A DNA stretch of 64,000 nt from Clostridia bacterium (GTDB lineage: Bacteria > Bacillota > Clostridia > Lutisporales > Lutisporaceae). Both the position numbers and the translations under genes were made by a program. The stretch lies in NCBI GenBank assembly GCA_035628995.1, contig DASPIR010000017.1:4651-68650 (forward strand). Direction: 5' to 3'. Of the stretch, positions 3,560-63,792 are shown piece by piece. Each line of letters opens with the position of its first letter. The first letter of the stretch is position 1. The notes under the pieces are model-generated. The model searched no databases and had not been told where the DNA came from. It was given only the letters and a program-made list of their open reading frames with translations.

Positions 3560-3563
3560 GATA

Positions 3564-3690: not shown

Positions 3691-3714
3691 GTCCTAAAAA
3701 CTGAACTTCTGTAT

Positions 3715-11235: not shown

Positions 11236-11242
11236 AGTTATT

Positions 11243-11271
11243 AAAGCCTTGAGAGATGTCAAGGCTTTTTC
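11243..11271 (+). terminator. rho-independent terminator
   Basis: AAAGCCTT-gagagatgtc-AAGGCTTT followed by tt. Confidence 0.65.
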
Positions 11272-11343
11272 ATTTATGGGAGCAAAAATATCTATGAGAG
11301 CCGTCTGATGACGGATAATGAATAAAATTGCGGAGGGGTTAAT

Positions 11344-12120: not shown

Positions 12121-12168
12121 TGATAAAGCCCCCCGATCCTGTTTTGTGCAGGAACGGAGGGCTTTATA

Positions 12169-13635
12169 TTATTCAGCTGTTTTCCTGCTTAGATTAATAT
12201 TTTCCATATTAAACATTCGCAATGAGCCTTTTATATCTTTCTCAACAGCCATTTTCCCGTGCTTGTCAACCTCGCTCTTGTCCTTGGGGCCGTGGCACAA
12301 GGAGGCTGCGCCTCCGATACAGCCATTTACACAGGTCATACCTTCGATAAAGTTTTCTTTCAGGCGGTTAAACTTGGCGAGCTTTAACGCTTTATCACAT
12401 TCAGCTATGCCATCACATACAACAGGGCGGAAGTCCAGCTCAAGGTTCTCTGATTCTATGACATGCCTGACTGCTTCTGTCAAACCGCCTGTGCGGGCAA
12501 ATATCCTGCCAAAGAAAGAGGCATTATCAAGTACAGCTTCCTCGCAGTTCTCTATGTCTACTTCCATGGCATCCAACATTGCGCATAATTCCTCGAAAGT
12601 TAATACATATTCTGTATCACCCTTAAGCTCATCTCTCATGATTTCTGCTTTCTTGGATGTGCAAGGTCCTATGAATACAATGCGGGCTTTATCATCCATG
12701 GACTTAATCAGCCTTGAGATGGCAATCATTGGGGATACCGAATCAGATATATTATTCTTCAATGTAGGATAAAACTTCTCAATATATCTTACAAAGGAAG
12801 GACAGCAGGAGCTTGTTACAAACTTCTTCTTGCCAACCGCTGCCGCAAGCTCTTTTGTCTCATGCATCGCCACCATGTCTGCTCCAAGGGCTACTTCTAC
12901 CACATCATGGAACCCCATCTGCTTTATCCCTTTGATTACTTGTCCTATAGTTGCATTGTCAAACTGGCTGGAGATGGAGGGAGCTATAACGGCGTAAAGC
13001 CTTATGCTATTATTGTGCGCAGCCTCCTTCAGCTCCTCAATGACATTTACTATGAAGGACTTGTCTGCAATAGCTCCAAATGGACATTGATAAGCACAGG
13101 CACCACACTGAATGCATTTTTCATTATCAATTATTGCCTTTTTATCATCATCAAAGTTAAGAGCGTGTGTAGGGCACGCTTTCTTACAAGGGCGCATAAC
13201 ATCAGAAATGGCATTGTAAGGGCATACTGCTTTGCATTTGCCGCATTCTATGCACTTATTGGGGTTAATATATGCTCTTCCGCTAACATGCTGTATAGCA
13301 CCCACAGGGCACGCTTCGGAACAGCGGTGTGCCAGGCATCCGCGGCAGGCTTCTGTTACTGTGAAGCGGTAAATTGGACACTCATCACAGGCAATGTCCA
13401 TCACTTCAATTATATTTGGATTATCCGCGCTGCCTCCGGTTGCCAGCTTTATCCTCTGCTCCATTATGGCGCGTTCCTTATGAATGCAGCACCTTATCCT
13501 CGGCTTAGGCCCGGGAGCGATTATTTTCGGAAGTGCCCCAAGCTTTTCATCCAGTGAACCTTCCAAAGCCAGCTCTGCTACACCGCGAAGAACTTCATAT
13601 TTTATCAATTGTACATCTGTCTCAAATTTTCTCAT
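12169..13635 (-). CDS. [FeFe]-hydrogenase-family protein (HfsD-like, with ferredoxin-type clusters)
   Basis: Several CxxCxxCxxxCP motifs plus H-cluster motifs FVTSSCCPSFV, FIGPCTSKKAE and EGMTCVNGCIGG. Confidence 0.85.
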   Translation of the reverse strand: MRKFETDVQLIKYEVLRGVAELALEGSLDEKLGALPKIIAPGPKPRIRCCIHKERAIMEQRIKLATGGSADNPNIIEVMDIACDECPIYRFTVTEACRGCLAHRCSEACPVGAIQHVSGRAYINPNKCIECGKCKAVCPYNAISDVMRPCKKACPTHALNFDDDKKAIIDNEKCIQCGACAYQCPFGAIADKSFIVNVIEELKEAAHNNSIRLYAVIAPSISSQFDNATIGQVIKGIKQMGFHDVVEVALGADMVAMHETKELAAAVGKKKFVTSSCCPSFVRYIEKFYPTLKNNISDSVSPMIAISRLIKSMDDKARIVFIGPCTSKKAEIMRDELKGDTEYVLTFEELCAMLDAMEVDIENCEEAVLDNASFFGRIFARTGGLTEAVRHVIESENLELDFRPVVCDGIAECDKALKLAKFNRLKENFIEGMTCVNGCIGGAASLCHGPKDKSEVDKHGKMAVEKDIKGSLRMFNMENINLSRKTAE

Positions 13636-43601: not shown

Positions 43602-43604
43602 GTG

Positions 43605-44510
43605 TTACCCTCCAATCTTTACTTTTATTCCATATGCCAAGAACTTGCCTGCAATGGACTCCACATACTCACTGGATGGTACGGGAATGTCCATTAGGCT
43701 GTTCTGCTTTCCAAGTCTATTATATTTGTCCGCTGCAATATTATGATAAGGCAAAATATTGACTTGTTCTATTCCTGGGGTGCTTTGTATAACCTCCGCT
43801 GTCGCCTTGATATTGCTCTCATCGTCATTGATGCCCGGTATCAGAGGTATTCTTATAAAAATCTTGTTGCCAAGCTGAGATATTGTCTTGAGGTTCTCCA
43901 GTATCAGCTTGTTGGATACTCCGGTGTATTTCATATGCTTATCATCATCCATGAGCTTAAGGTCATAAAGGAACAGGTCAGTCAGACCGCTTATCGTTTT
44001 TATTGTTTCTGGAGCCCCGTAGCCGCTTGTATCAACTGCTGTATGATATTCCCTTTTCTTGCACTGGGTCAGCAGCTCCAGCAGGAATTCCGGCTGTGAA
44101 AGTGGCTCTCCTCCGGAGAAGGTGACACCGCCACCGGATTCGTCATAAAAAATACTATCCTTATCAATCTGATACATAACTTCTTGCACAGCAGCCCACT
44201 TTCCTGCAGCTTCCCTTGCTTTTGCGTAGCAGATCTCAGTGCAGCTGCCGCAAGAAGTGCACGTATCTCTATTAAAGTGCAGTGAGCCATCTAACAAGAA
44301 CAAAGCACCGTGCTTGCAGACCTCCACACACTTGCCGCAGCCTATGCATCTTTTATTGTACAGCATAATCTCAGGGCCAAAAGCCTGGCTCTCGGGGTTG
44401 TGGCACCAGATGCAGGAGAGTGGGCAGCCCTTAAGGAAGACTGTTGTGCGGATACCTGGTCCATCATGTATTGAATATTTTTGAATGTTGAATATTCTTC
44501 CATTACACAA
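43605..44510 (-). CDS. glycyl-radical enzyme activating protein (radical SAM)
   Basis: ..HDGPGIRTTVFLKGCPLSCIWCHNPE.. plus an additional ferredoxin-type Cys cluster region. Start assigned to the in-frame TTG (44510) 5 nt after GAGGTG. Confidence 0.85.
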   Translation of the reverse strand: MCNGRIFNIQKYSIHDGPGIRTTVFLKGCPLSCIWCHNPESQAFGPEIMLYNKRCIGCGKCVEVCKHGALFLLDGSLHFNRDTCTSCGSCTEICYAKAREAAGKWAAVQEVMYQIDKDSIFYDESGGGVTFSGGEPLSQPEFLLELLTQCKKREYHTAVDTSGYGAPETIKTISGLTDLFLYDLKLMDDDKHMKYTGVSNKLILENLKTISQLGNKIFIRIPLIPGINDDESNIKATAEVIQSTPGIEQVNILPYHNIAADKYNRLGKQNSLMDIPVPSSEYVESIAGKFLAYGIKVKIGG

Positions 44511-44542
44511 ATTATCACCTCGCTTAGATACCGAATTAATGT

Positions 44543-44558
44543 AGCAAATAGCATGCCA
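44543..44558 (-). promoter_or_regulatory. sigma-54 (-24/-12) promoter
   Basis: The minus strand reads TGGCATgctatTTGCT, matching TGGCAC-N5-TTGCW, about 33 nt upstream of the activase start. Confidence 0.75.
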
Positions 44559-44617
44559 TATTCTCCTATCGCACAAATGCAGTATCTCTGTCATTCGTGT
44601 AAACGCAAAAAATAAAC

Positions 44618-44633
44618 GTACCGAAAATGGTAC
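44618..44633. promoter_or_regulatory. candidate enhancer (UAS) palindrome 1
   Basis: GTACCGAAAATGGTAC, embedded in a longer hairpin (AAACGTACC..GGTACGTTT) that could also act as the terminator of the regulator gene. Confidence 0.5.
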
Positions 44634-44658
44634 GTTTACGCACTTAATTTAATACGAA

Positions 44659-44674
44659 GTACCGAAAATGGTAC
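44659..44674. promoter_or_regulatory. candidate enhancer (UAS) palindrome 2
   Basis: An identical GTACCGAAAATGGTAC lies 41 bp centre-to-centre from copy 1, abutting the regulator stop codon (its last base is the first base of the stop triplet). Confidence 0.5.
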
Positions 44675-46098
44675 TATTCAATTTCTTTAACAAGCCTTAT
44701 ATTATGCTTTTTAATTTTGTTGTGCATCGTTTGCTTTGGCAGTCCGAGAGTTCTGGCGGCCATGGATATGTTGCCCTTGGAAGCCTTGAGTGCTTTGACC
44801 AGCAGGCTTTTCTCATATTTATCAACAGAAGCATTCAAATCTCCCATGGGAGTGTCCAAGGGGAGTGCCTCTGTATCCATGGCTGCAAGCTTCAGCCTTT
44901 TATCGAAGTAATACTGAATATCATCAAGGACAATGGTTTCGGTGTCAATTAGGTTCATGGTGCTTTCCACAAGGTGTTCCAGTTCCCTTACGTTTCCCGG
45001 CCAGGGGTATTCTTCGAAGACCCTCATAGCCTCCTTGTCAACACCTGCAACCTTTTTTCCCAGCTGTTCATTATTCCGTTCAATGAAATAGCGTACCAGT
45101 ACGCTTATATCCTCACGCCTTTCCCTTAAAGGCGGCAGCTCCAAATAGATTACATTGAGCCTGTAATAAAGGTCTTCCCGCAGAAGCTTCTTTTCCACCA
45201 GCTCAGAGGGAGGCTCATTTGTAGACGCTATTATCCGCACATCCACGTCCTTGGTCTTGGCGGCACCTACTCTTCTTACGACTCCATCCTGGATAACCCT
45301 GAGAAGCTTAGCCTGAAGCTCTATGTTAAGAGAATTCACTTCATCCAGGTAAAGGGTGCCCCCATGAGCAAGCTCAAAAAGTCCGGGATTGTCCTTCGCC
45401 CCTGTGAAGCTGCCCGCTGCTGTGCCGAAAAGGATTGATTCAAGAAGGCTGAAGGGGAGGGCTGCACAGTTCTGGGCTATAAAGGGTTTGTTTCTTCGCT
45501 TGTGGTCTGCATTGTGGATTGCCTGGACTAATAGCTCCTTGCCTGTGCCTGTCTCACCGTACACCAATACCGGGGAATTGCTTTTGGCTATACGCCTTGC
45601 CTTTTCCTTAAGCCCCACTATGGGCTCGCTGTTCCCTATTATGTTGTCAAAGGTGTATTTTGCGCCGCTTTCATTGTATTCCTTTTTACCTGTACTGCTT
45701 TTATACAGCTGCTCCTGAAGGTGCATAATCTTTTCAGATAAATCTACCACCTGGGTAAGATCCTTGAAGACTTCAAAGCAGCCCACCATTTCTCCATTTT
45801 CAAATATGGGGATGGTGGAGGTCACAGTAGAAACCTTTTTGCCCTGATAATTTGTATAATGCTGTATATGTTCAATTATAGGCTTCTTATTATTTATGAC
45901 ACTGTAGAAGGTGCTTGTTTCTTTTGTAAGGTCAGGGAAAACATCAAGTATGTTTTTGCCTATAGCTGTATGGGAGTCGATACCTCCAATATTGGTGGCA
46001 GGCTCTTTGTAGAAGGTTATATCAGCTTTTGCATCTGTGACTATGATTCCTTCGTCAAGGTTTAGAAGTATAAGCTCCAGCAGTCTTTTATAGTTCAT
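44674..46098 (-). CDS. sigma-54-dependent transcriptional activator (PAS sensor + AAA+ + Fis-type HTH)
   Basis: ..VLVYGETGTGKELLVQAIH..GAFTGA-type ..GSFTGAK..ELFELAHGGTLYLDEV.. and C-terminal ..GNISMAARTLGLPKQTMHNKIKK... Confidence 0.9.
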   Translation of the reverse strand: MNYKRLLELILLNLDEGIIVTDAKADITFYKEPATNIGGIDSHTAIGKNILDVFPDLTKETSTFYSVINNKKPIIEHIQHYTNYQGKKVSTVTSTIPIFENGEMVGCFEVFKDLTQVVDLSEKIMHLQEQLYKSSTGKKEYNESGAKYTFDNIIGNSEPIVGLKEKARRIAKSNSPVLVYGETGTGKELLVQAIHNADHKRRNKPFIAQNCAALPFSLLESILFGTAAGSFTGAKDNPGLFELAHGGTLYLDEVNSLNIELQAKLLRVIQDGVVRRVGAAKTKDVDVRIIASTNEPPSELVEKKLLREDLYYRLNVIYLELPPLRERREDISVLVRYFIERNNEQLGKKVAGVDKEAMRVFEEYPWPGNVRELEHLVESTMNLIDTETIVLDDIQYYFDKRLKLAAMDTEALPLDTPMGDLNASVDKYEKSLLVKALKASKGNISMAARTLGLPKQTMHNKIKKHNIRLVKEIE

Positions 46099-46247
46099 AA
46101 TAATGCCCCCATACAAAATAATTCTTATTTATAATGATAAAGAACTCTTGACGGTTAATCAAGGGGGAGTTAAAAGCCTTTAAGGCACTAAATGAAATAT
46201 GCCTTATAAAAATTAACAAAAGATATATACTAAGGTGAGGTGTTTTT

Positions 46248-51585: not shown

Positions 51586-51662
51586 GCACCTATAGCTCAG
51601 CAGGATAGAGCGACGGTTTCCTAAACCGCAGGTCGTGGGTTCGACTCCCTCTAGGTGCACCA
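51586..51662 (+). tRNA. tRNA-Arg (anticodon CCU), CCA-encoded
   Basis: Manual cloverleaf: 7-bp acceptor GCACCTA/TAGGTGC, D arm GCTC/GAGC, anticodon loop TTCCTAA, 5-nt variable loop, T loop TTCGACT, 3' ACCA. There is one A.C mismatch in the anticodon stem and one U.U in the T stem. Confidence 0.8.
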
Positions 51663-51713: not shown

Positions 51714-53216
51714 GTAAATAATTTTGTGGGTAGGAAAGGACAGCGTCCTTTCTAGACAAGATTCGCCCGTATTTAGTTAGTTCTATTTTGTCAGAATCGC
51801 TCAATTTTATGTATGAAATTGGACGGTTCTGGCAATAATTTTATTAGACAAGATTATAAAAAAGACTCCGATAGAAGGCATGGGCGTCTGGCTGCTCGGC
51901 CTTTTATCATTTATGGCTATCTAAATATACTGAGTTACCTGATCTTCGAACATAATCATCAGATGATTCAAAACCTGGTCCCAGTCCCGGTATCTTTGGG
52001 TCCATTTTTTGAGGACGTTCCTGCTTGATAAATAAAGCATTTTTTCTAAGGCTGAGTCTGATGGAAAGACAGTCTTTGTCTTCGTTACCTTCCTGAATTG
52101 CCTATGTAAGCTTTCAATTATGCTGGTTGTGTAAATCATTTTACTGATACCCTCAGGGTACTTGAAGAATGGACTTAGAACATCCCAATTAGCCTCCCAG
52201 TTCCTTGTAGCATAAGGATATTGCTTGCCCCATTTACTGTTTACTTCACTCAGCTTCATTAAAGCAACCTCCTCATTTACAGCGGTATATACTGCTTTAA
52301 AATCCCTGGCAATTCTTTAAGATGTTTGTAGGATACATACTTGAAAGAGTTTCTAAGCTGGTGAATAATGCACCTTTGTATCTCGGCTTTTGGATATGCT
52401 GCCTGTATAGCTTCCTTAAGGCCACTCAGTCCATCAACGCTGAATATCAGTACATCTTGTACGCCTCTGTTCTTAAGCTCTGTCAAAACTCCAAGCCAAA
52501 ACTTTGAGGATTCATTTTCTCCTATCCATACGCCCAATATGTCTTTATTCCCTTCCAGGTCGATGCCTAATACCACATATGCAGCTCTGTTTAGAATATG
52601 TCCGTCCTCTCTAACCTTGTAATGTATGGCATCCATGAATATGAATGGGTACATGGGTTCAAGAGCTCTATTCTGCCATTCTTTTATTTCAGGGACAAGC
52701 CTTTCTGTGATTTTGCTGACCATTTCGGCAGATACTTCAATGCCCTATAGATCTTTGATTTGATCATGAATATCTCTTGTAGACATTCCGCGGGAGTAGA
52801 GGGAAATTATCTTTTCCTCCAAGCAGGATATATCCCTTTTGTATTTAGGAACTATTTTGGGCTCAAAATCGCCTTTTCGATCTCTGGGAATATTCAGTTC
52901 AAACTCTCCAAATTGGCTTTTTACAGTCTTTTGAGAGTGCCCATTACGCTCATTATCATCTCAATCAACTTCTCGTTCTTAGGATACCCAATCGATACAT
53001 CAAGCTCAGCTTCCAGCATTTCCTGGATAGTGTCTTTAAACAAATCTTTTAGATAGCCATAGATGTCACCTACGTTTTGAAATTGGTTCTCCTTAATCAT
53101 TTCCTTGGTAAAATTCTTTTGTATTGCGGTGCTCATAAAAAAGACTCCTTTCTGGCTTATATTTGATTCTTGCCAGAAAGGAGTTAACTTTTTCATTCAC
53201 CCACAGAATTATTTAC
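51714..53216 (-). mobile_element. IS256-family insertion sequence, decayed
   Basis: Terminal inverted repeats GTAAATAATTTTGTGGGT (51714-51731) and ACCCACAGAATTATTTAC (53199-53216) match 17/18. The interior encodes a broken IS256-type transposase. Confidence 0.8.
51921..53196 (-). pseudogene. IS256-family transposase, split by at least 2 frameshifts and 1 in-frame stop
   Basis: Three ORF pieces (52921-53196, 52277-52723, 51921-52259) carry N-terminal, DDE-core (..FMDAIHYKVRED..VDGLSGL..QRCIIHQLRN..) and C-terminal (..KWGKQYPYATRNW..) segments. There is an in-frame TAG at 52745-52747 (..IKDL*GIEVS..), and frameshifts near 52920 (A-run) and near 52300. Confidence 0.85.
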
Positions 53217-53373: not shown

Positions 53374-53763
53374 TTATTTTATTTTACCTCTAATAAAATT
53401 ATCTATCATTTTGATATCCGCTAAATCTTTTTCGCGCCCTAATTCAATTTTTTGTTTTTTTATACTCTCTAAGCTACCGACTGGGAAGCAATTAATATAT
53501 TCAATATGATCAACATTCCAATTTTCAAATACTTCTATAATATTATTAATTTTAAGGCTTCTTGAGTTATTACTAGATATTTTAACTTTGTGCCTCTGTA
53601 ATATAAGTTGCTCGAATAACTCATTGGTACAGCCTATATCAATGTCCCTGGTTTCATCTTTTACACCATGTATTACTAATCCAGCACCCGCTGTTATCCA
53701 ATATTCATCTATTGGTAAATTTAATTTATCCATAATATCAAATATTGACTCTCTATTAAGCAT
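53374..53763 (-). CDS. small nucleotidyltransferase-fold protein (Pol-beta superfamily)
   Basis: ..WITAGAGLVIHGVKDETRDIDIG.. (G-x-G..D-x-D type). ATG at 53763 follows GGAGGGG. 129 aa. Confidence 0.55.
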   Translation of the reverse strand: MLNRESIFDIMDKLNLPIDEYWITAGAGLVIHGVKDETRDIDIGCTNELFEQLILQRHKVKISSNNSRSLKINNIIEVFENWNVDHIEYINCFPVGSLESIKKQKIELGREKDLADIKMIDNFIRGKIK

Positions 53764-54159
53764 GAAAGACCCCTCCAAAATATTAAATAAAGGAATGCTA
53801 AAGTTCCAAATACTTAGACTGTTTTTATAATTATGCCTATCCAATATTGAATACATAACTAAACAATTGAATAAATAGGTAAACTACCATCATAATAACA
53901 AATTATAGTTTGTATTTCCACTTATGTTTATCAAAACATTATTGTAATTAATGAATGTATAGAAAATGAATACCGGAGAAATAGTTGTGATTCTAAATAA
54001 CTTTCAAGATTATAAAAAAAGCTGAGAATATCCTTTAATAAGTATATTCATTATAAAGATTAATACTCAATATATTTTTCAATTTATTAATATTGAAAGT
54101 TATTAAATAAGAAAACAAAAATGTAATAAACAAAACGACTTAAATGAAGGGAGAAAAGA

Positions 54160-55023
54160 ATGGAAGACTATAATAATAACTCATCACCATTAAGTGTATG
54201 TTGGAATATCACATCGGTTTGTAATGACAACTGTGAGTTTTGTTATCGTAACTCTAATTCCAAGATATTAAGTTTAGAAGAAAATAAAACTATTTTAAGA
54301 AAATTAATAAAAAGCGGAGTAAAAAAAATATCGTTGATTGGAGGAGAACCATTATTATATGATGGGCTCTTTGATTTAATAATGTTAGCACATGAAGCAG
54401 GAGTGGTAACATCCCTTACTACGAATGGGATTCTTTTAGATAAAGAAATACTAACAATTCTAGATAAGTGTCTTGATTGGTTGACTTTGTCTCTAGATGC
54501 ATCTAATGAGCAACTACAGACAAGGCTAACTCGTAATGAGAATCATTTTGAGAAAAATATTTCACTTCTTGAAATTATTAAAAGTAATAATTACTCAGTT
54601 AATATAAAAATTAATACCCTGGTAACAAAGATAAACAAACACGACGTTCCGAATATTACCAATATAATAAGAGAATATAATGTGAAAAGGTGGAAAATAT
54701 TTAGGTTTTTCCCAATTAGAGGACAAGCTATCGAGAATATCAGTAAATTTAATATTACAGATGATGATTATAATAGAATGAGAAAAGAAGTAACGTTAAT
54801 GAGAAGGTTCATCAAGGGATGTAATATATGCTTTGCTGATAAAGATACACTAAAGGACTCTTATTTTTTACTGTTCTCTGATGGAACCGTAATGAACTCA
54901 TGCAACGAACAAGATGTTATTGTCGGTAATTTATTAAGCGACGAGATAGCTGACATTTGGAGCAAAGAGTATTTTAACAAGAGCAGACACATAGAAGTGC
55001 ATGACTGGCTAATAAATGAATGA
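54160..55023 (+). CDS. viperin-family radical SAM enzyme (prokaryotic viperin-like)
   Basis: CNDNCEFC (CX3CX2C) at 54220-54243. Collinear with human viperin as recalled: SVCWNITSVCNDNCEFCY / SVNYHFTRQCNYKCGFCF; ISLIGGEPLL / INFSGGEPFL; SLTTNG / SIVSNG; KINTLV / KINSVI; VKRWKIFRFFPIRG / VRWKVFQCLLIEG; LKDSYFLL / MKDSYLIL. The 287-aa length is typical of pVips. Confidence 0.8.
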   Translation: MEDYNNNSSPLSVCWNITSVCNDNCEFCYRNSNSKILSLEENKTILRKLIKSGVKKISLIGGEPLLYDGLFDLIMLAHEAGVVTSLTTNGILLDKEILTILDKCLDWLTLSLDASNEQLQTRLTRNENHFEKNISLLEIIKSNNYSVNIKINTLVTKINKHDVPNITNIIREYNVKRWKIFRFFPIRGQAIENISKFNITDDDYNRMRKEVTLMRRFIKGCNICFADKDTLKDSYFLLFSDGTVMNSCNEQDVIVGNLLSDEIADIWSKEYFNKSRHIEVHDWLINE

Positions 55024-55056
55024 TAATTTAAATTGATAGAAAGTGAGAGAGCAAAT

Positions 55057-57210
55057 ATGGAAGTATTATCCCCAGCTGGTGATATGAATCAATTAATTGC
55101 AGGAGTGAAAGCTGGCTGTGATGCTGTTTATGGCGGACTTAAGCTTTGGAATGCAAGAAATAGAGCCAAAAATTTTACAATAGAAGAATACATTGATGCA
55201 GTGTCATATTGTAAAGAAAATAATGTTAAATTTTATCTTACTATCAATACTCTAATGTATGATAATGAAATAGATGAAATCATGAATGTATTAAAAGACG
55301 AGGAATTTATCTTGCCAGACGCTGTGATTGCATCAGACTTTGGACTTATAAAGGTTTTAACAAAGGAACTACCTCATTTGCATATACATGCATCAACACA
55401 GTTTGGTGCGCATTGTTTAGATGATATTACTTTCTTAGAAAAGCTCGGTATTAAGCGAATAATATTGTCTCGAGAACTTCTTATGGATGAAATTAAATAT
55501 CTTAAGTGCAATACTAGAAGTCAACTTGAAGTATTTGTATGGGGTGTGCAATGTATAGGTTTTTCAGGGATTTGTTATTGGGGATCTCTAGTTTTTGGCG
55601 GCAGTGGTAGTAGGGGTAAATGTCTTGCTCTTTGTAGAGATATATATAGTTTTAATAATAGAAAATGCAACTTTTTTTACTCTAAAGATTTAAAGGCTTT
55701 TTGTAAAGCACATGATTTGAATGAAATAGGAATTGATAGTATAAAAATTGAAGGTAGAAGAAGCCGTGATTATTCAGAAATCTATAATACAGTATCCGGT
55801 TTTAAAGAAGCATTAAATGCAAATTATCAGAGCGAAAACGTGGAAGTAAAGAACCCGTATTGCGGTTATCTAGAAAATAAGCTACCAGTAGAAGGTCTAA
55901 TAGAATTATGTAATGAAAGAAACATTGTCAGAAATATTCCATTTAGAGAAGTTGGACAACTTGATTTGATAGTTGTATCTAATGAACTAGGTGAACCAGG
56001 GTATATAAATGCAAGTGAATTAAATAAGAATGTAGGTACAGTAGGATTTGTAAAGAGTCGGATAACAAATAAGATTGTTCGAGGTAAAAGGAATTTTTCT
56101 ATAAATATTATGAGTAATCAAGAGGATATTATAAATTGTATTTATGTAATTGGAAACAAGGGAGAAGGGAAGATGTTTAGTTTGAAAACTGATCATGATT
56201 TAATTCAGAGTGATATCTATATTATTTATAGAGATATTTTAGATTCTCTGAATGGTAATACATTATCAGAACTGACTTTCCCCAAAACAATCGATTATAA
56301 GCTGAAATTTAATAAGAATGATTATGACCTTGTTATGAACTATATAAAAGAAAAATCAGCGATACCCAATATACATATAGAAAGAAATTCTATTAGTGAA
56401 AAAAAATATAATATTCTAAATGATGCCATATCGATAGAAGTAAATGATATAAACATGATTGCAGCATTGGATAAAGCTGGGGTTAACAGGATTATATATA
56501 ATATTAATAATATTGATGAATTAAGTATTGTTCTTGAACAGTATGGAACTTATCAAAATATCATATATAAGCTACCATATTTTGACTGGAAATCAGTAGG
56601 GGTAAAGCACCTTGCAAATCTGCTGAATAATCAAAATATAATGATTACACGGTTGTCGCAAATATCCATATTAGAATATGGGAAATTCAAATCTATGGAA
56701 GCAGATTATACTGTCCACTGCTGGAATAAAAGAACCATTAATTCCTTGATGGAATATGGAATAAATAGAATTACGTTATCACCAGAGATTTCCTTCGAAG
56801 ATGCTATAAAAGTTTTTAGTGATGTGAATATAAAATTAGAAATCATATTTGCTGGACATATACCACTTGCATATACACGACATTGTTTTGCTGAGAGTTT
56901 AAATTGTAATGCTGAGTGTAATAAAATAAAAGAACTAATTAATATTGATAAAGATATGAAGTTTATGATTAGATGCAGACAAAGTCACAGAGAAATATTT
57001 TATGAAAACCCCATTTTAGTGGATGTTAAAAACATAAGCACTTTACCAAATGGAACTACTTTTCGCTATATATGTAATATGCATAATCTTGAAGAATTAT
57101 TAAATAACATTCAAATAATGAAAAATGATCAACATTACTATGAGAAACTATTGCAAACAACGCTTTGGAGGAATAGCTATGTTGGTAATTTAAAGGAGAG
57201 TGTAAGGTAA
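55057..57210 (+). CDS. U32-family ('peptidase U32') Fe-S protein with two tandem U32-like modules
   Basis: N-terminus MEVLSPAGDMNQLIAGVKAGCDAVYGG... PROSITE-like E-x-F-x2-G-x2-C..G-x-C. C-x6-C-x15-C-x3-C at 55552-55635. A second TIM-like module in the C-terminal half carries ..EIIFAGHIPLAYTRHCFAESLNCNAEC... Confidence 0.8.
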   Translation: MEVLSPAGDMNQLIAGVKAGCDAVYGGLKLWNARNRAKNFTIEEYIDAVSYCKENNVKFYLTINTLMYDNEIDEIMNVLKDEEFILPDAVIASDFGLIKVLTKELPHLHIHASTQFGAHCLDDITFLEKLGIKRIILSRELLMDEIKYLKCNTRSQLEVFVWGVQCIGFSGICYWGSLVFGGSGSRGKCLALCRDIYSFNNRKCNFFYSKDLKAFCKAHDLNEIGIDSIKIEGRRSRDYSEIYNTVSGFKEALNANYQSENVEVKNPYCGYLENKLPVEGLIELCNERNIVRNIPFREVGQLDLIVVSNELGEPGYINASELNKNVGTVGFVKSRITNKIVRGKRNFSINIMSNQEDIINCIYVIGNKGEGKMFSLKTDHDLIQSDIYIIYRDILDSLNGNTLSELTFPKTIDYKLKFNKNDYDLVMNYIKEKSAIPNIHIERNSISEKKYNILNDAISIEVNDINMIAALDKAGVNRIIYNINNIDELSIVLEQYGTYQNIIYKLPYFDWKSVGVKHLANLLNNQNIMITRLSQISILEYGKFKSMEADYTVHCWNKRTINSLMEYGINRITLSPEISFEDAIKVFSDVNIKLEIIFAGHIPLAYTRHCFAESLNCNAECNKIKELINIDKDMKFMIRCRQSHREIFYENPILVDVKNISTLPNGTTFRYICNMHNLEELLNNIQIMKNDQHYYEKLLQTTLWRNSYVGNLKESVR

Positions 57211-57939
57211 ATGAGAAAAAAAAGTGAGTGGGGTAGTTCGCCGACCAGAATTTACAGGATTCTAAATAGATTAGAGAAGGAAAAAGATAGCTTTACTACA
57301 TGCATTGTTGGTTGCTCAGACGGCAAATTTGTTTTACCTTTCGCTCGGAAGAAACATTTTATAGTAGGATATGACATTGATAGAATTGCGCTATATGGTG
57401 GAAAAAAATTATTCCCAATAAAAAGAGATATTACCAAAAAATATGAATTTGAATCTACTGAAGGAATTGTTGGAAATAAAATTACTTCGTATAAAATACC
57501 AACAGAAGAAAGAGATATGACAGGTCTATTGCAGAAGATAAAGAAAGATGGGTTAGAAAAGTATGTAGAGATAAGATTATTAGATTTCTTTAAAAGCGAA
57601 GTTGATAAAAAATATGATTTAGTCTTTACAAGTTGTTCGTTACATTATAAAAATAATAATGCATTTTCGCTTGAGCAATTGATTAATAAATTAAAAGATG
57701 CAGTAGAAGTAGACGGGTATTTATATATAGACTATATGATGACTCTCTTTGATTATCCTACTTTTGAATCAGATTTATTCTGTAAACCGGAACAGATGAA
57801 AAGCTTTTTTGTAGATGAAGATTGGAAAGTTGAATATTATAGAGAAATGAAGAAACCAGTATTTGAAGCTGCTCATGTGGATTGTGTTTATGACCACTTT
57901 CACAGGTTTGGGTACTTGCTAGCTAAGAGGCTTAAATAA
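57211..57939 (+). CDS. class I SAM-dependent methyltransferase (TehB/TPMT-like)
   Basis: Motif I ..CIVGCSDGKFVLPFA.., post-I ..VGYDID.., motif II ..YDLVFTSCSLHY... Its ATG directly abuts the U32 stop (TAAATG). Confidence 0.7.
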   Translation: MRKKSEWGSSPTRIYRILNRLEKEKDSFTTCIVGCSDGKFVLPFARKKHFIVGYDIDRIALYGGKKLFPIKRDITKKYEFESTEGIVGNKITSYKIPTEERDMTGLLQKIKKDGLEKYVEIRLLDFFKSEVDKKYDLVFTSCSLHYKNNNAFSLEQLINKLKDAVEVDGYLYIDYMMTLFDYPTFESDLFCKPEQMKSFFVDEDWKVEYYREMKKPVFEAAHVDCVYDHFHRFGYLLAKRLK

Positions 57940-58062
57940 GAGTTATATCCAGCTATAGCTTCCGTATGATACCTTTTGCATATTAATATAAGATACTAAA
58001 CTTTATAAAGCCTAGTTACTAATAACAGCATAAGAATTATTCTGCTGATAAGGAGCAATATT

Positions 58063-59292
58063 ATGAATAATAAAAATTTACTTATCCTTTCTTTTGCTAG
58101 ACATAGGGAATTTGCTCTAAAAACTTTACTAAGAAAAGGCATTAGAATTCTTACCATCGATAATGTTTTCAATAGTAAAGTTGAGGTAGCCGATTATGTA
58201 TACTATATAAATAATAGAAGAGATTCGTCAGAGATGTTTCAAGCTGCTGTGGATTTTTACAAAAAAAGGAAGTTTGATGGTGTTTTTTCTTTCCTTGATA
58301 GTAGCACCATTACACTTGGCATGTTAAGTGATTATTTTGAGCTTAGTTATTTTAGTGAATCTGTTGGAAGAATATTATCAGACAAATATGAAGTAAGGAA
58401 GTTCTTGCAAAAGATTGGTGCAAATAGACTTTTGTTTTTTAGTGTAAAGTCTGAAGCTGAGCTATATAAAGCTGCTGAAACTATAGGATTCCCTTTTGTA
58501 TTGAAGCCAAGATGTAGAAGTGCTGGAGAGGGAGTAGTAGTTATAAATAATAAACAAGAAATGTTATCTTCATATAAGCAAGTACTGCAAGCTGCTAAAT
58601 CTCAAGACCTAATTGCTGAGGAATACATTTGCGGAGATGAGTACTGTGCTGAGACTCTTATTTATAATGGTGAAGTTTATGTATTAGCAGTAACAAAGAA
58701 GTATGTAACACATGATAGGTATTGCATAGAGTATATTGAATTAACACCAGCTCCAATTCAAACTAATTTATGGAATAAGATTAGTGATTTCGTGAGGCAT
58801 ACTATTTCTGAATTTGGCATACAGAATGCTGTATTGCATATAGAACTAAAAGTCAATCAAAGCGATGAAGTCAGGCTAATTGAAATAAATCCAAGACCCG
58901 CTGGGAATAACATTATTGAATCTATATATAAAACTAAACAATTAAATCTATATGACTATGCATACGATATTGCCCTTAAAAAACCTATAGATGTTAATAA
59001 GCTAAAGCAACAAATGGACAAGCCATTTATTAGATATGCTCTAACTTACGATTTTCTAAATCCAACGTGTGAAGGAAAAATCAAAGAAATAAGTGGAATT
59101 AGGGATGCAATTTCAATGTTGGAACATGATTGTGAAAAGTTAACACTGAAATATAAAGTAGGAGACCTTCTGCCATTACCTAAGTCAAACAACGAAGTCA
59201 GGGGTTCAATATACCTTGTAGATAAAGATTACCACAGGATTATTAAAAGATCAGAGGAGATTGAAAACGTACTCCATTTTGAATTAGAATAA
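58063..59292 (+). CDS. ATP-grasp ligase 1
   Basis: ..DKYEVRKFLQKIG..GFPFVLKPRCRSAGEGVVVI..HIELKVNQSDEVRLIEINPRPAG... Confidence 0.75.
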   Translation: MNNKNLLILSFARHREFALKTLLRKGIRILTIDNVFNSKVEVADYVYYINNRRDSSEMFQAAVDFYKKRKFDGVFSFLDSSTITLGMLSDYFELSYFSESVGRILSDKYEVRKFLQKIGANRLLFFSVKSEAELYKAAETIGFPFVLKPRCRSAGEGVVVINNKQEMLSSYKQVLQAAKSQDLIAEEYICGDEYCAETLIYNGEVYVLAVTKKYVTHDRYCIEYIELTPAPIQTNLWNKISDFVRHTISEFGIQNAVLHIELKVNQSDEVRLIEINPRPAGNNIIESIYKTKQLNLYDYAYDIALKKPIDVNKLKQQMDKPFIRYALTYDFLNPTCEGKIKEISGIRDAISMLEHDCEKLTLKYKVGDLLPLPKSNNEVRGSIYLVDKDYHRIIKRSEEIENVLHFELE

Positions 59293-59405
59293 GCTGAAAA
59301 TAATTATAAGAGTTACTATTTGCATAAATCGATAGTAATTTTAAACTATTAGGTTTGTATTGGTTTACAGCTATATTATAAATATTTTTATTAAGAGGGA
59401 TTACG

Positions 59406-60452
59406 ATGATTGAAAAATTAGAAAATTTACGAAAAGAAATTGACAAAATTAATGTTAATTTACTAGATTTACTAAATAAAAGAACCGAGTTAGTGCAAGA
59501 AATTAGCACTTTGAAAGATGGGCTCAATAGTGAATACTTTGACCCTGTAAGAGAAAAGCAAATGCTAGATAACATTATAGGGCAAAATAGAGGACCTCTG
59601 CAAAACGAATCTGTCAGAACGATTTTCTATAATATATTTAGAACATCACTTAATATTATGGGATCTGTAAAAGAAAAGAGACTACTTGTTGGTGCAGGTA
59701 GTGATATTGCATTTGAGAGAATTAATGAAATGTTCGATTTACCCATTAATAGCAAAGTCATAATAGCAGGACCATGTGCTGTGGAAGAATTTGAACAACT
59801 AGATCAAATTGCTCAATTAATTAAGAGTAAAGGCCTAAAATTTTTAAGGGGAGGTGCATATAAGCCCAGAACATCGCCCTATGATTTTCAAGGGAAAAGG
59901 GAAAATGGGGTAAGAATGTTATATGAGGTAGGAAGAAAATATGATCTGAAAACTGTGACAGAGGTTGTAGATACAAGAGATGTTGAACTTGTATCTAAAC
60001 ATGTTGACATTTTACAGATTGGTGCGAGAAATATGACAAATTTTGAGCTTCTTAAAGAAGTAGGAAAGATTAATAAGCCAGTAATATTGAAGCGAGGAAT
60101 GAATGCAAAAATTGATGAATTTATATTTGCAGCTGAATATATTGCTCTTCAAGGTAATAGAAAAATAATACTTTGCGAACGAGGAATCAGGACTTTTGAA
60201 ACCAAAACACGGAATACACTTGATATCAGTAGTATTCCTATACTAAAAAAAGAAACAAATCTTCCAGTAATAGTAGATTTAAGCCACTCTTTAGGACGAA
60301 AAGATATAATAAATGATGTCGCCAAAGCCGTTGTTGCTGTTGGAGCAGAAGGTATAATGGTTGAGGTTCATCCATATCCACATCTTGCTTTATCTGATGC
60401 AGAACAACAATTAAATCCAGAAGAATTTTTAAGCTTACTTAAGCTTATTTGA
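59406..60452 (+). CDS. bifunctional chorismate mutase (AroQ) / 3-deoxy-7-phosphoheptulonate (DAHP) synthase, type I-beta
   Basis: N-terminal CM helix bundle (..[26 protein letters not shown]..) followed by ..[46 protein letters not shown].., as in the B. subtilis AroA(G) architecture. Confidence 0.85.
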
Positions 60453-60537
60453 TTTTATATTTCACTAATATTAGAAGCTGCGATATATTGTGCTAGTTAA
60501 TAGATTCTGTACAGCAATCATATTGGGAGGGAATACA

Positions 60538-61392
60538 ATGACAAAAGGATTCATAGAAACGGAAATAAAGATTCTTAATATAGATGTTAACTTTGTAATA
60601 AGTAGACTTCAAAAGGTAGGAGCAGTTTTTATAGAAGAAAATATACAGAAGATATATACATATGATGTAAATCCAATATCAACTACTTATAAGAGTTTAC
60701 TTTTTGAGCTAAACGAAAAAAGATACAATATTAAAAATGAAGATATCTTATTAAAAAGAATCAATGCAGTATTTTCAGATATGGATCATATTATCAACGA
60801 TAAAGATAGAGAAAAGTTTTATAAAATTACTAATTATTTTAGTATGCAGGAGTTTTCTAAAAGCATAAAAAAGATTGATAGTTCAATTATTAAGTTATTG
60901 AACGAAGACAGTCTAATCTCAATTATTAACTCATATTATATCAATCCTGGTAAATGGATTAGATTAAGGGAAACTGGTAATGAAGTAACAATAACAGTAA
61001 AGCAAAAAATAGGTAATAATAAAGTAAATAGTGACAATAAATATCAAATCGATAGCATAAGGGAGATTGAAGTTAAAGTTGATAGTCTTGAGAAAGGCAA
61101 TTTGCTATTATCAGAGTTAGGCTTCTTCTATAGAAATTATCAAGAAAAGAAGCGAATTAGCTATTTATACAAAGATAAAATAAGTATTGATATCGACTTC
61201 TGGCCTTTTATTCCGCCATATATAGAAATTGAGGGTGAGAATAAAGATGAAATATACGAAGTAGCGAGAATGCTTGGATATGGAAATGATGAAATAAAAG
61301 TGATGAATACTGATGAAGTATATTTAATTTATGGTATTAATATTTATGATTATAAAGAACTTAAGTTGGATAGACCTCTTATGCAATTATAA
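60538..61392 (+). CDS. CYTH-domain protein (triphosphate tunnel metalloenzyme / class IV cyclase fold)
   Basis: N-terminal ExExK signature (ETEIKIL), ..WIRLRETGNEVTITVKQK.. and ..ISIDIDFWPFIPPYIEIEGE... A ~90-aa insertion follows the first strands. ATG at 60538 follows GGGAGGG. Confidence 0.65.
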   Translation: MTKGFIETEIKILNIDVNFVISRLQKVGAVFIEENIQKIYTYDVNPISTTYKSLLFELNEKRYNIKNEDILLKRINAVFSDMDHIINDKDREKFYKITNYFSMQEFSKSIKKIDSSIIKLLNEDSLISIINSYYINPGKWIRLRETGNEVTITVKQKIGNNKVNSDNKYQIDSIREIEVKVDSLEKGNLLLSELGFFYRNYQEKKRISYLYKDKISIDIDFWPFIPPYIEIEGENKDEIYEVARMLGYGNDEIKVMNTDEVYLIYGINIYDYKELKLDRPLMQL

Positions 61393-61568
61393 TTATTCGT
61401 TTACTGTTCTAATATCATTACAGAAAAATGCACTTATTTATACAAGTTACTATTCAACTAGATAGTTTGATAAAATTATATGGGATATTATAACTTATTG
61501 TAACTATAGTTATGTTGAAGCTTAGGAGTGAACTGTAAAGTATGAGACTTGAAGTGGGGGAGAGAATA

Positions 61569-62783
61569 ATGACGGAAAAAAGATTAATTTTAGTCGGAAG
61601 TGGTTCTAGAAGGTATAGGAGTTATATTGTTGATGCGGCTGTGTCTATGGGAATCAAAATCACACTGCTTACTGATAAAGTTGTTAGATGGGAAAAAGAT
61701 CTCTGTGATAATATACTATTCGTTAATATTAGAGATGCTGAAGCTATGCAACAAAGACTTTATGAATTAATGGGAGCTATTAAGTTTGACGGTATAATTA
61801 CATATGACGAAGAATTGGTAATACCGACAGCGGAGTTAGCCCAGAGGCTAGGACTCCGATATATAAAACCCGAAACCGCTGTTGCAGCAAGAAATAAATA
61901 TGTAATGCGTTCTAAGTTAAAGGAAAACAGAATTAGAGTACCTGAATTCGTAAAAATTAGTGATGTTGAAGATTTTAAAAAAGCAATTTCAATAATGAAT
62001 TTTCCAGTAGTAATAAAACCAATTGACGGTCATAGTAGCATTGGCGTTATCAAAATAGAAACAAAGGAAGTTGCCTATAGAGTATTTGAAAATGTAACAC
62101 ATATAAAAATAAATGGGAGAAGTCAAAACACATTCATTCTTGAGGAATACGTTAAGGGAAAAGAAATAAGTGTAGAATCTTTGGTATATGAAAATGAAAT
62201 ACTTCATTTTGGGATTACACAAAAGTATACTAGCTCAGAACCATATTTCGAAGAAATAGGCCATTCTTTTCCGGCAAATATATCTCAAAGTTTAAGAGAT
62301 GAGATAATAAGTATTGTAGAAAAAGGAATTAGGGCACTCGGAATTAATATTGGGGCAACACACACAGAATTGAGATTAACGAGTGAAGGACCAGTAATTA
62401 TAGAAATTGGAGCTCGATTAGGAGGAGATAGAATACCTTATCTTGTTTATCTTGCAACTGGTGCAAATATGGCTCAAGAAACTATCAAAGTTGCATTGGG
62501 GATAAAACCCAGTATAGACATTCTATATAATCGCGGTGCGGCAATACGATTCATCATTCCGTATAAGTGTGGAGAAATAGTTGAATATCCTAATCTTGAC
62601 AAAGCATCAAACTATCCCGGAATATGTGAAGTTAGTTTCAAGGAGCAGGTTGGTCAAATAAAATTGCCACCAGAAGGGTTTTTTACACGTTTTGGGTTTG
62701 TTATAGCTATAGCAGATCAAGCAAATGAGGCATATCAGAAAGCCTGTGAAGCAGAAAAACTCATAGTTATTAATATACAATAA
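61569..62783 (+). CDS. ATP-grasp ligase 2
   Basis: ..NKYVMRSKLKENRIRVP..NFPVVIKPIDGHSSIGV..HTELRLTSEGPVIIEIGARLGGDRI... ATG at 61569 follows GGGGAG. Confidence 0.75.
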   Translation: MTEKRLILVGSGSRRYRSYIVDAAVSMGIKITLLTDKVVRWEKDLCDNILFVNIRDAEAMQQRLYELMGAIKFDGIITYDEELVIPTAELAQRLGLRYIKPETAVAARNKYVMRSKLKENRIRVPEFVKISDVEDFKKAISIMNFPVVIKPIDGHSSIGVIKIETKEVAYRVFENVTHIKINGRSQNTFILEEYVKGKEISVESLVYENEILHFGITQKYTSSEPYFEEIGHSFPANISQSLRDEIISIVEKGIRALGINIGATHTELRLTSEGPVIIEIGARLGGDRIPYLVYLATGANMAQETIKVALGIKPSIDILYNRGAAIRFIIPYKCGEIVEYPNLDKASNYPGICEVSFKEQVGQIKLPPEGFFTRFGFVIAIADQANEAYQKACEAEKLIVINIQ

Positions 62784-62820
62784 GGGGGGGCAACTTTCTG
62801 AATTATTTCAGAATAAAAGT

Positions 62821-63792
62821 ATGATTGCGATTAATGTAGATAACATAACTAGGAAGTATAAAAGTACAAATATATGGGGGCAACTAAAAAGTGAACACAT
62901 AGCCGTTGATAATGTTTCTTTTGATATAAAGAAGGGAGAACTATTTGGCCTATTAGGCCCAAATGGTGCGGGTAAAACTACTATCATAAAAATGCTTACA
63001 ACTCTACTTTTGCCAACATCAGGAACAGCACACATCATGAATTATGATATTCGGAAAGATATGCAAAGAATAAGGGCTATTATTAATTTTACTTTTGGAG
63101 GAGATAGAGGGTTATATTGGAGACTTTCTGCTAGGGATAATCTTAGATATTTTGCTGATTTATATAATGTTGAACGAGGTATTGCTGATAAAAGAATAAA
63201 TGAGATATTAGAGCTTATTGGAATGACAAAATGGGCAGATGATAGAGTAGAAAATTACTCTAAAGGAATGAAGCAACGGTTACACATAGGAAAAGTATTG
63301 ATAAATAATCCGGATATTATTTTTTTTGACGAACCAACATTAGGGTTAGACCCTGTTGGTGCTAAGGATCTAAGAAAAATAATTGTAGATCTACTAGAAT
63401 TAGATAAAACAATACTTCTTACAACTCATTATATGTTCGAAGCAGACATGCTGTGTAATAGGGTGGCTATTATAAATCACGGAAAAATTATTGCAAATGA
63501 TAGGCCAGGGGAATTGAAGAAGTTGCTTAAGGATGATGTAGTGTTAGAAATTGAAGTATATGGAGCTACAAAAGAGAGACTAGATGATATAAAAAAACTT
63601 GAATGTGTTGAAAGTCTAAATGTAAAGCAAGTGGAACAAAGTCAATTAATTCAAATACAACTTAAAGAAAATAATGAAATCATCAATCAAATTCTGAACA
63701 TCCTTAACGATGTTCAGATAAAAGAAATTAGAAACAGAAAACCTACACTGGAAGATGTTTATATTAAACTAGTAGGTGGGATAAATGAATAA
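62821..63792 (+). CDS. ABC transporter ATP-binding protein (ABC-2 / DrrA-like exporter type)
   Basis: Walker A GPNGAGKTT, signature YSKGMKQRL, Walker B IIFFDEPTLGLD. Confidence 0.9.
   Translation: MIAINVDNITRKYKSTNIWGQLKSEHIAVDNVSFDIKKGELFGLLGPNGAGKTTIIKMLTTLLLPTSGTAHIMNYDIRKDMQRIRAIINFTFGGDRGLYWRLSARDNLRYFADLYNVERGIADKRINEILELIGMTKWADDRVENYSKGMKQRLHIGKVLINNPDIIFFDEPTLGLDPVGAKDLRKIIVDLLELDKTILLTTHYMFEADMLCNRVAIINHGKIIANDRPGELKKLLKDDVVLEIEVYGATKERLDDIKKLECVESLNVKQVEQSQLIQIQLKENNEIINQILNILNDVQIKEIRNRKPTLEDVYIKLVGGINE

Follow-up and report, generated by a model that had tools for sequence, protein, structure and literature searches.

The 64,000-nucleotide stretch of Clostridia bacterium DNA analyzed here (contig DASPIR010000017.1, positions 4,651 to 68,650; hereafter the window) contains near its end a gene cluster in which a 717-amino-acid (aa) protein of the U32 family is encoded together with a viperin-like enzyme, a methyltransferase and a 3-deoxy-D-arabino-heptulosonate-7-phosphate (DAHP) synthase. 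We regard this U32 protein as the best current candidate for an O2-free, prephenate-dependent hydroxylase of a free nucleotide, as opposed to RNA or quinones. The explanation towards which we lean is that a paralog of the RlhA type was recruited from RNA modification to free-nucleotide chemistry, with the pathway and the role of DAHP synthase (DAHPS) that are set out below. The U32 gene and the two cysteine motifs of its product are the following:

55057-57210, plus strand: predicted RlhA-type double-module U32 iron-sulfur (Fe-S) protein of 717 aa (Pfam, NCBIfam, AlphaFold2 and profile comparison).
55552-55635, plus strand: Cys motif of the N-terminal module, C166-x6-C173-x15-C189-x3-C193, predicted ligands of a [4Fe-4S] cluster.
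56884-56976, plus strand: Cys motif of the C-terminal module, C610-x6-C617-x3-C621-x18-C640, predicted second Fe-S site.

The U32 open reading frame (ORF) begins with MEVLSPAG, a start that is common to its homologs, and an in-frame TTG at 55033 offers an alternative start upstream. Its product, publicly named "peptidase U32 family protein [Clostridia bacterium]" and derived from a metagenome-assembled genome, matches Pfam PF01136 (Peptidase_U32) in two stretches, with 173 bits against a cutoff of 22.4. Residues 1-268 form an N-terminal U32 module, residues ~270-455 a beta-rich middle region, and residues ~456-717 a second U32 module. The four Cys residues of the N-terminal module, whose spacing had been read correctly in a first-pass annotation made from the letters alone, occur without exception in the 41 family members compared, and they align with C170, C177, C193 and C197 of TrhP and with C169, C176, C192 and C196 of RlhA, both of Escherichia coli. 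That annotation had also noticed a second, more degenerate module with the pattern HC-x6-C-x3-C. This module is present, with H609 preceding C610, and it contains a fourth Cys, C640, which had been missed; C610, C617 and C640 are kept in all 41 members and C621 in 39.

Several comparisons bear out that the second half is U32-like. With the NCBIfam models, residues 1-202 match TrhP and UbiU, and residues 516-612 match UbiV (E 6e-16). A profile-profile comparison of the N-terminal with the C-terminal module gave 95% probability and an E-value of 4e-8, and superposed C173, C189 and C193 on C610, C617 and C621; C610 also aligns with C180 of UbiV. In the AlphaFold2 model, which has a mean predicted local distance difference test score (pLDDT) of 88.5 and a predicted template modeling score (pTM) of 0.89, two alpha/beta modules are separated by a beta-rich domain. 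When the whole model was submitted to Foldseek, the best match in the PDB was 5D88, the only solved U32 structure (E 1e-5, target-normalised TM-score 0.64); the module aligned is not specified, so this match does not judge the second module on its own. A sequence search of the PDB with the U32 protein found no relative, 5D88 being recovered by the fold search only. From its sequence, the protein is predicted to carry two [4Fe-4S] sites. Its family name, together with old reports on PrtC and HP0169 (cited in PMC5727448), would make it a true U32 peptidase (collagenase). We find this hardly credible: both predicted Fe-S Cys motifs are invariant, apart from C621, there is neither a signal peptide nor a secretion context, and the gene partners are consistently nucleotide enzymes.

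The first-pass annotation had likened the protein to a fused heterodimer. It does hold two different U32 modules in one chain, but the fusion is not novel. Comparison by hhalign of the U32 family with RlhA-type proteins of the layout U32-DUF3656-U32 (700-850 aa) aligned 681 columns with a probability of 100% and an E-value of 2e-97. Approximately half of the RlhA1 proteins have a second U32 motif, RlhA2a or RlhA2b (Kimura et al. 2017, PMC5727448). Since such double-U32 homologs of RlhA were already reported in 2017, the two-module layout is the known RlhA-type layout and not a new invention. The middle region aligns with the DUF3656 region of RlhA-type proteins at low confidence only, and PF12392 (DUF3656) was not detected in the U32 protein by Pfam at E<=0.01. 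With the profile of the N-terminal module, the two pyrimidine C5 hydroxylases TrhP and RlhA score 199 and 181 bits, and UbiU scores 155 bits. All matches to the equivalog models are below cutoff: 157 bits versus 534 for TrhP (NF011996, E 7e-46), and 134.6 versus 440 bits and 58.7 versus 275 bits for UbiU and UbiV (NF047963 and NF047965).

The clade to which the U32 protein belongs consists of ~60 sequence clusters of 670-720 aa that share 30-42% identity over their full length, and ordinary RlhA-type proteins align well by BLAST to the N-terminal ~37% of a clade protein only. One sister locus, L009, carries a normal 837-aa U32-DUF3656-U32 gene (2115-4628, minus strand) 5 kb from a 703-aa clade member on the same contig, which shows that the two are paralogs with separate roles. 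We conclude that the U32 protein is a diverged paralog of the RlhA-type U32 "oxidases", and that the clade appears to be new although its architecture is already known. A phage origin of the protein is unsupported, because tblastn against 50,697 phage records yielded no full-length homolog; the only matches had the length of the N-terminal module (32-38% of the query).

The genes around the clade members are informative about the likely substrate. The contexts examined comprised 8 from assemblies, 27 full-length loci from species-representative genomes and 3 that were reached via the methyltransferase. Nucleotide-metabolism genes are present in every one of the ~35 examined loci with a full-length relative; the kinds found across the clade are thymidylate-kinase-like nucleoside monophosphate (NMP) kinase, PfkB kinase, pVip (prokaryotic viperin) or ribonucleotide reductase (RNR), dCMP deaminase, CYTH, HAD, NUDIX, Ham1 and HD proteins. 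Of the 27 species-level loci, nearly all have the thymidylate-kinase-like NMP kinase and ~20 a viperin-like radical S-adenosylmethionine (SAM) enzyme, and most have CYTH-like and GreA-like genes. Genes for Cof-type HAD proteins, a second methyltransferase, dCMP-deaminase-like proteins and proteins with the fold of ornithine/arginine decarboxylases are also frequent in sister loci. The smallest cassette consists of a PfkB kinase, an NMP kinase, the U32 protein, a methyltransferase and a viperin. Cassettes of the clade recur in gut anaerobes, and one is found in Lachnospiraceae bacterium MA2020 (JQKK01000014.1). Nearly always, a gene encoding a methyltransferase-like protein of 235-242 aa, 40-59% identical to that of the window, is located next to or near the U32 gene. 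The window genes of these kinds are:

54160-55023, plus strand: viperin-like radical SAM enzyme of 287 aa, with the CX3CX2C motif CNDNCEFC (PADLOC pVip, E 1e-50).
57211-57939, plus strand: class I SAM methyltransferase-like partner of 242 aa, named MT240 here (conserved partner gene, AlphaFold2 fold).
60538-61392, plus strand: CYTH-like triphosphate-tunnel protein of 284 aa according to the public gene call (weak match to TIGR00318, cyaB, E 5e-7).

The pVip match of the viperin-like protein extends over its full length, and the protein is 38% identical to the radical SAM enzyme of L009. The CYTH-like ORF, which reaches back to a GTG at 60490, encodes a protein that is 30-37% identical to CYTH proteins of sister cassettes, some of which match PF01928. 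The MT240 gene starts at the base directly after the U32 stop codon, as had been noted earlier. MT240 belongs to a small, unnamed family, for which a profile search of 1.84 billion representatives gave 209 matches at E<=1e-3; roughly 270 contigs carry an MT240 gene. The window protein is 45-49% identical to the partner proteins of other loci, and its AlphaFold2 model (pLDDT 83.8) is closest in fold to TehB and to N- and O-methyltransferases of small molecules. We also considered MT240 as a prephenate-using carboxy-SAM synthase similar to CmoA and rejected this, as there is no NCBIfam CmoA match and CmoA is outside the top 50 structural neighbors. Two members of the MT240 family, P0365 and P0367, are 456-461 aa long, twice the usual length, with four matched stretches, which suggests tandem or fused forms of the methyltransferase.

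Because of this gene context throughout the clade, we consider that the substrate is most likely a free nucleoside or nucleotide and not RNA or a quinone; no SCP2/UbiT gene was found in the cluster. Both nucleotide chemistry and a hydroxylation followed by methylation had been proposed from the window alone, and the sister loci point the same way, given that a dedicated methyltransferase almost always accompanies the U32 gene. An alternative is that the U32 protein is an extra RNA hydroxylase of the RlhA or TrhP type, which together with the methyltransferase modifies rRNA or tRNA (5-hydroxy- and 5-methoxycytidine, ho5C and mo5C, or 5-hydroxy- and 5-methoxyuridine, ho5U and mo5U), for instance to shield the translation or transcription machinery of a producer against the nucleotide that the cluster makes. 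The colinearity with RlhA-type proteins over the full length and the possession of the same Cys motifs would suit such an enzyme, and its pairing with an O-methyltransferase would parallel that of TrhP with TrmR in mo5U synthesis (PMC6599085; PMC6158493). We nevertheless consider it unlikely, since the region equivalent to DUF3656 is shortened as well as poorly aligned and undetected by Pfam, a housekeeping RlhA-type gene coexists with the clade member in L009, the partner MT240 is unlike TrmR but similar to methyltransferases of small molecules, and the other partners are nucleotide kinases, deaminases, RNR or pVip and NTP pyrophosphatases instead of RNA-handling proteins.

The link to prephenate comes from a gene of the shikimate pathway that, as had been stated in the first-pass annotation, is the third gene downstream of the U32 gene:

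59406-60452, plus strand: chorismate mutase (CM) of the AroQ type (residues ~1-95) fused to a DAHPS of type I-beta (NF009239).

The fusion protein scores 487 bits on NF009239 (cutoff 279), 67.5 bits on CM_2 and 260 bits on DAHP_synth_1. Stand-alone DAHPS proteins of ~260 aa, which exceed the cutoffs of NF006421 and TIGR01361, are encoded in sister cassettes L018, L021, L024, L027 and L032 and in the abundant gut variant L093/L094, and the DAHPS gene is usually located directly between the U32 and methyltransferase genes. DAHPS is present in 5 of the 27 cassette loci and in none of 41 loci with other U32 proteins that were fetched by the same scan (Fisher p=0.008). The DAHPS-bearing sister cassettes encode neither an ATP-grasp ligase nor anything else that would obviously consume aromatic precursors. 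This is most simply explained if the U32 reaction needs a co-substrate derived from chorismate. Such a need fits the published work, in which prephenate is the demonstrated oxygen donor of UbiU-UbiV in anaerobic ubiquinone hydroxylation (PMC10990095) and a genetic requirement of TrhP and RlhA (PMC10990095; PMC11574389; for TrhP also PMC6599085). As these cassettes have no other evident need for aromatic precursors, the recurrence of DAHPS beside the U32 gene provides independent genomic support for the prephenate hypothesis.

The window CM-DAHPS shares 51% identity with the Listeria enzyme 3NVT over its full length; for the DAHPS domain, the identity is 58% with 3NVT and only 47% with the stand-alone DAHPS of the cassettes. 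As it is closer to the housekeeping Listeria enzyme than to the cassette type, DAHPS seems to have been recruited independently, more than once. In L024, the DAHPS gene (7025-7782) is split into two ORFs by a frameshift or as a pseudogene, which suggests that DAHPS is dispensable in some carriers.

A different account of the CM-DAHPS gene, already offered as a fallback in the first-pass annotation, is that it is unrelated to the U32 protein and raises the aromatic amino acid supply for two ATP-grasp ligases that build the peptide moiety of an exported product. The genes concerned are:

58063-59292, plus strand: ATP-grasp ligase A, 409 aa (Pfam ATP-grasp_4, E 3e-24).
61569-62783, plus strand: ATP-grasp enzyme B, resembling L-amino-acid ligases, 404 aa (Pfam ATPgrasp_N, ATP-grasp_4 and LAL_C2).
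62821-63792, plus strand: ATPase of a DrrA-type ABC transporter (NCBIfam).
From ~63785 to past the end of the window, plus strand: two ABC-2 permease genes (genes at 10592-12201 of the public contig L001, in which genes identical to those of the window are continued by the two permease genes after the ABC ATPase).

The CM-DAHPS gene sits between the two ligase genes, enzyme B matches the dipeptide ligase models BacD and DdaF (NCBIfam, E 1e-21 to 1e-23), and a BagF/FevY model is among the NCBIfam matches. Moreover, clusters for aromatic natural products often contain an additional copy of DAHPS. Against this, DAHPS adjoins the U32 gene in six sister cassette types without any ATP-grasp gene, ligase A being specific to the cassette version of the window and missing from all sister cassettes. 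Conversely, the module of ATP-grasp B plus three ABC genes occurs in Geosporobacter without DAHPS, and DAHPS is present in 0 of 81 loci with relatives of ATP-grasp B. We therefore judge supply of the ligases to be an unlikely sole reason for the gene; roles of DAHPS in providing the U32 co-substrate and in supplying the ligases are not mutually exclusive.

The locus of Geosporobacter ferrireducens (L095, CP017269, 2949406-2970641) encodes a 50% identical ATP-grasp B with the same ABC ATPase and two ABC-2 permeases, and its further partners are a GHMP kinase, a SIS isomerase, two more ATP-grasp proteins, an epimerase and an NTP-transferase/HAD fusion (heptose-nucleotide-like). No U32 and no DAHPS gene is present at this locus, possibly a distinct cluster for a glyco- or nucleoside-peptide, as yet uncharacterised, in a strain that is in culture. 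A metagenome scan for relatives of ATP-grasp B, which served as a negative control only, gave 80 loci at <=39% identity, none with U32, MT240, pVip or DAHPS.

Several points weigh against the proposal of a prephenate-dependent nucleotide hydroxylase. Hydroxylation in vitro has so far been shown for no U32 protein (PMC10990095). The viperin-like protein of the window scores 166 bits on NF038283, just below the equivalog cutoff of 180, and the window cluster is without the NMP kinase, GreA-like factor and HAD phosphatase that are typical of sister cassettes. The dCMP deaminase and thymidylate kinase hint at pyrimidines, and a purine or another aromatic substrate would also be possible. DAHPS is found in a minority of cassettes only, so that it would be helpful rather than required. 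In the CM domain of the window, the Arg, Lys, Asp and Arg-Glu positions align with those of the Listeria and Geobacillus enzymes, but it has a Met ("...LNIM") where these have a Gln ("...LELQ"), a residue that we take to be equivalent to the catalytic Gln88 of E. coli CM. This makes local synthesis of prephenate, as proposed in the first-pass annotation, doubtful. The co-clustering with a prephenate supply that had been claimed holds insofar as DAHPS recurs beside the U32 gene, but no CM domain is present in any sister locus, and hence the recurrent partner is the entry into the shikimate pathway, DAHPS, and not chorismate mutase. The CM domain of the window is the ordinary N-terminal domain of a Bacillota DAHPS, which in the Listeria and Geobacillus enzymes mediates feedback inhibition by chorismate or prephenate. 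We infer that the fusion protein acts as a flux valve that responds to prephenate, not as an enzyme dedicated to its synthesis, so that the arrangement is better read as locally boosted or prephenate-sensed shikimate flux.

From the architecture and gene partnerships described above we infer substrate, hydroxylated position, use of prephenate, order of steps and product as follows. Without O2, the U32 protein would hydroxylate an aromatic carbon in the base of a nucleotide, with prephenate as the oxygen donor. The most parsimonious target would be C5 of a cytosine or uracil nucleotide, because the nearest characterised relatives make ho5C (RlhA) and ho5U (TrhP). MT240 would then O-methylate the new hydroxyl. 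The viperin-like enzyme would supply or consume the triphosphate, giving a base-modified 3'-deoxy-3',4'-didehydro (ddh) nucleotide, and hydroxylation by the U32 protein may take place before or after viperin action. In the cassettes generally, kinases would raise the phosphorylation state, viperin or RNR would alter the ribose, and the CYTH and HAD proteins would trim phosphates, the CYTH protein by removing or rearranging the triphosphate. As each turnover would use one prephenate, a cassette DAHPS would raise the shikimate flux; this DAHPS would be of the prephenate/chorismate-sensing CM-DAHPS type in the window, and of the regulator-free stand-alone type in sister cassettes. In the window only, the two ligases would add amino acids and the ABC system would export the product. 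The presence of two ATP-grasp ligases and an ABC exporter suggests that the final product is an exported, amino-acylated nucleoside.

A bolder version of this proposal is somewhat less likely. It holds that cassettes widespread in gut Bacillota/Clostridia make base-modified didehydro- or deoxy-nucleotides (5-hydroxy- or 5-methoxypyrimidine) of a class not known so far, that the RlhA-derived U32 protein is the first prephenate-dependent hydroxylase of free nucleotides, that the repeated and independent recruitment of DAHPS is a genomic signature of stoichiometric use of prephenate, and that the window product is an exported amino-acyl nucleoside antibiotic. The role of the cassettes could be either phage defence or antibiotic production.

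Not all cassettes contain a viperin. In a second type, NrdD/NrdG or another RNR (Ribonuc_red_lgC) replaces it (L002, L005, L006, L010, L028, L033, L037 and L038), and these cassettes add PfkB, HD, Ham1, DHH or NUDIX proteins, dCMP deaminase and the protein with the ornithine/arginine-decarboxylase fold. This type may make a base-modified deoxynucleotide. Some cassettes adjoin integrases, transposases or conjugation genes; the abundant gut variants are placed between housekeeping genes, behind a LysR regulator. A further explanation to be weighed is that the cassettes make a modified deoxynucleotide, for instance 5-hydroxy- or 5-methoxy-dUTP or -dCTP, for the DNA of mobile elements, like the hypermodification kits of phages. 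In phage T4, the corresponding logic is that of a dCTPase, a hydroxymethylase and a dNMP kinase, and the RNR-type variants do combine RNR, dCMP deaminase, a thymidylate-kinase-like gene and HD, Ham1, DHH and NUDIX hydrolases beside integrases or HTH_17 genes. However, a viperin-type enzyme is encoded in the window and in most cassettes, and DNA cannot be built from the ddh products of such enzymes, which terminate chains. Furthermore, there are no polymerase or phage structural genes within 10 kb, the phage records contain no full-length homolog, and the LysR-regulated position of the abundant variants among housekeeping genes is a further argument against it. We consider this explanation highly unlikely overall; DNA hypermodification could apply to the RNR-type cassettes, and is unlikely for those of the viperin type.

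Two other kinds of gene were observed in sister cassettes. Paralogs of the transcript-cleavage factors GreA/GreB are regular there, at times in 2-3 copies, and the window is without them. We speculate that, where the product of a cassette terminates transcripts, these factors rescue the host RNA polymerase. They are located as follows, with many further loci:

L010, 8007-8495: GreA/GreB-like paralog.
L012, 9448-9990: GreA/GreB-like paralog.
L014, 12883-13356: GreA/GreB-like paralog.
L093, 1756-2957: GreA/GreB-like paralogs.

The other is a gene resembling cyclic-nucleotide phosphodiesterases of the Apyc1 type, which lies between the kinase gene and the GreA-like or U32 gene:

L088, 5484-6185: metallo-beta-lactamase-fold protein with a match to the Anti-Pycsar Apyc1 family.
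L091, 5382-6122: the same.
L093, 5434-6111: the same.

In the window, the cluster genes from 54160 to 63792 are all on the plus strand with short gaps between them. The G+C content is 29-33% from ~53.3 kb to the end of the window, as compared to 39-45% over the preceding 20 kb. Upstream of the cluster are located:

51586-51662, plus strand: tRNA-Arg(CCT) (Rfam scan).
51921-52723, minus strand: fragments of a Mutator-family transposase (a 148-aa piece matches PF00872, E 2e-51).

Because the tRNA-Arg gene is followed by transposase fragments and then by a fall of the G+C content to ~30%, the cluster has the appearance of an island that was acquired horizontally and inserted beside a tRNA gene. 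The tRNA was the sole match in the Rfam scan of the whole window, and no riboswitch was found upstream of the cluster; scans for promoters and terminators gave counts that did not differ from those in shuffled sequence. Divergent from the cluster is an ORF (53374-53856, minus strand) of 160 aa, which the public gene call shortens to 129 aa; neither Pfam nor NCBIfam nor PADLOC gave a match for it. Its pattern G-x-G ... D-I-D recalls small nucleotidyltransferases such as the lincosamide nucleotidyltransferases, and it could be a resistance or immunity gene. The remaining genes of the window belong to a metabolism that is strictly anaerobic, in keeping with our proposal; among their products are a glycyl radical enzyme, a decarboxylase of the UbiD type, Fe-S proteins and an Fe-S protein resembling dihydroorotate dehydrogenase. 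The glycyl radical enzyme (786 aa, pyruvate formate-lyase-like plus Gly_radical) is encoded at 41241-46116 (minus strand) together with a neighboring ORF of 329 aa, probably its activase, and a sigma-54 activator.

Among 8 million papers and preprints, our searches found none that links U32 proteins with viperins or free nucleotides, and nothing pertinent on viperin with ATP-grasp, on viperin-like gene clusters or on U32 proteins with either thymidylate kinase or radical SAM enzymes. In recent reviews, ubiquinone and RNA are the only U32 substrates listed (PMC11574389), and a survey of viperin neighborhoods names kinases and fusions to triphosphatases, with no mention of U32 proteins or methyltransferases (bioRxiv 10.1101/2023.09.13.557418). 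What appears to be new is the combination of a U32 oxidase with a pVip-like system, for which we know of no earlier description. The U32 "oxidases" are the only enzymes that are thought to use an organic oxygen donor, prephenate, and no member has been reconstituted in vitro, partly because the substrates are awkward ones: ribosome assembly intermediates, tRNA and polyprenyl phenols (PMC10990095; PMC11574389). If our proposal is true, a clade acting on soluble nucleotides would be a tractable system in which to settle the mechanism: what each of the two Fe-S sites does, what becomes of prephenate and which molecule accepts the electrons. Viperin biology, so far concerned with unmodified ddhNTPs, would be extended to analogues with a modified base, and the clade would point to new nucleoside antimetabolites from abundant gut anaerobes.

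Among known systems, RlhA (YdcP), which acts on C2501 of 23S rRNA, is like the U32 protein in its module order U32-middle-U32 and in its CX6CX15CX3C motif, and its known chemistry is a prephenate-dependent, O2-independent C5 hydroxylation of cytosine. It differs in that RlhA stands alone, whereas the clade sits in nucleotide-metabolism cassettes and has a middle domain that is not recognised as DUF3656. TrhP (YegQ), with TrmR or CmoB, likewise pairs a hydroxylase with a SAM-dependent O-modifying enzyme, and TrhP is the best match of the N-terminal module; however, TrhP has a single module, and the methyltransferase of the window is unrelated to TrmR and CmoB by Pfam and NCBIfam. UbiU-UbiV resemble the U32 protein in having two different U32 modules, each with a four-Cys site. 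They are separate chains, whereas the clade proteins are one chain with a beta domain between the modules, the fourth Cys of the C-terminal module (C640) is placed differently from C39 of UbiV, and the clade loci have neither UbiT nor a quinone context.

The CM-DAHPS of the window is like the Bacillota enzymes of Listeria (3NVT) and Geobacillus (5J6F), and passes the equivalog model as such. In contrast to these, it is an extra copy in a 30% G+C island, belongs to a specialised cluster and has the Met in place of the Gln. As regards the pVip systems, a radical SAM enzyme that matches the PADLOC pVip models is present, and the sister loci also have the NMP kinase, a known pVip partner; viperins fused to triphosphatase or cyclase domains have been reported as well (bioRxiv 10.1101/2023.09.13.557418). 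However, known pVip systems comprise one gene or two, and the base of their product, an anti-phage ddhNTP, is not modified. To this the cassettes add the U32 protein, one or two methyltransferases, CYTH, HAD and GreA-like proteins, a deaminase and sometimes DAHPS, and the window also adds the ligases and the exporter.

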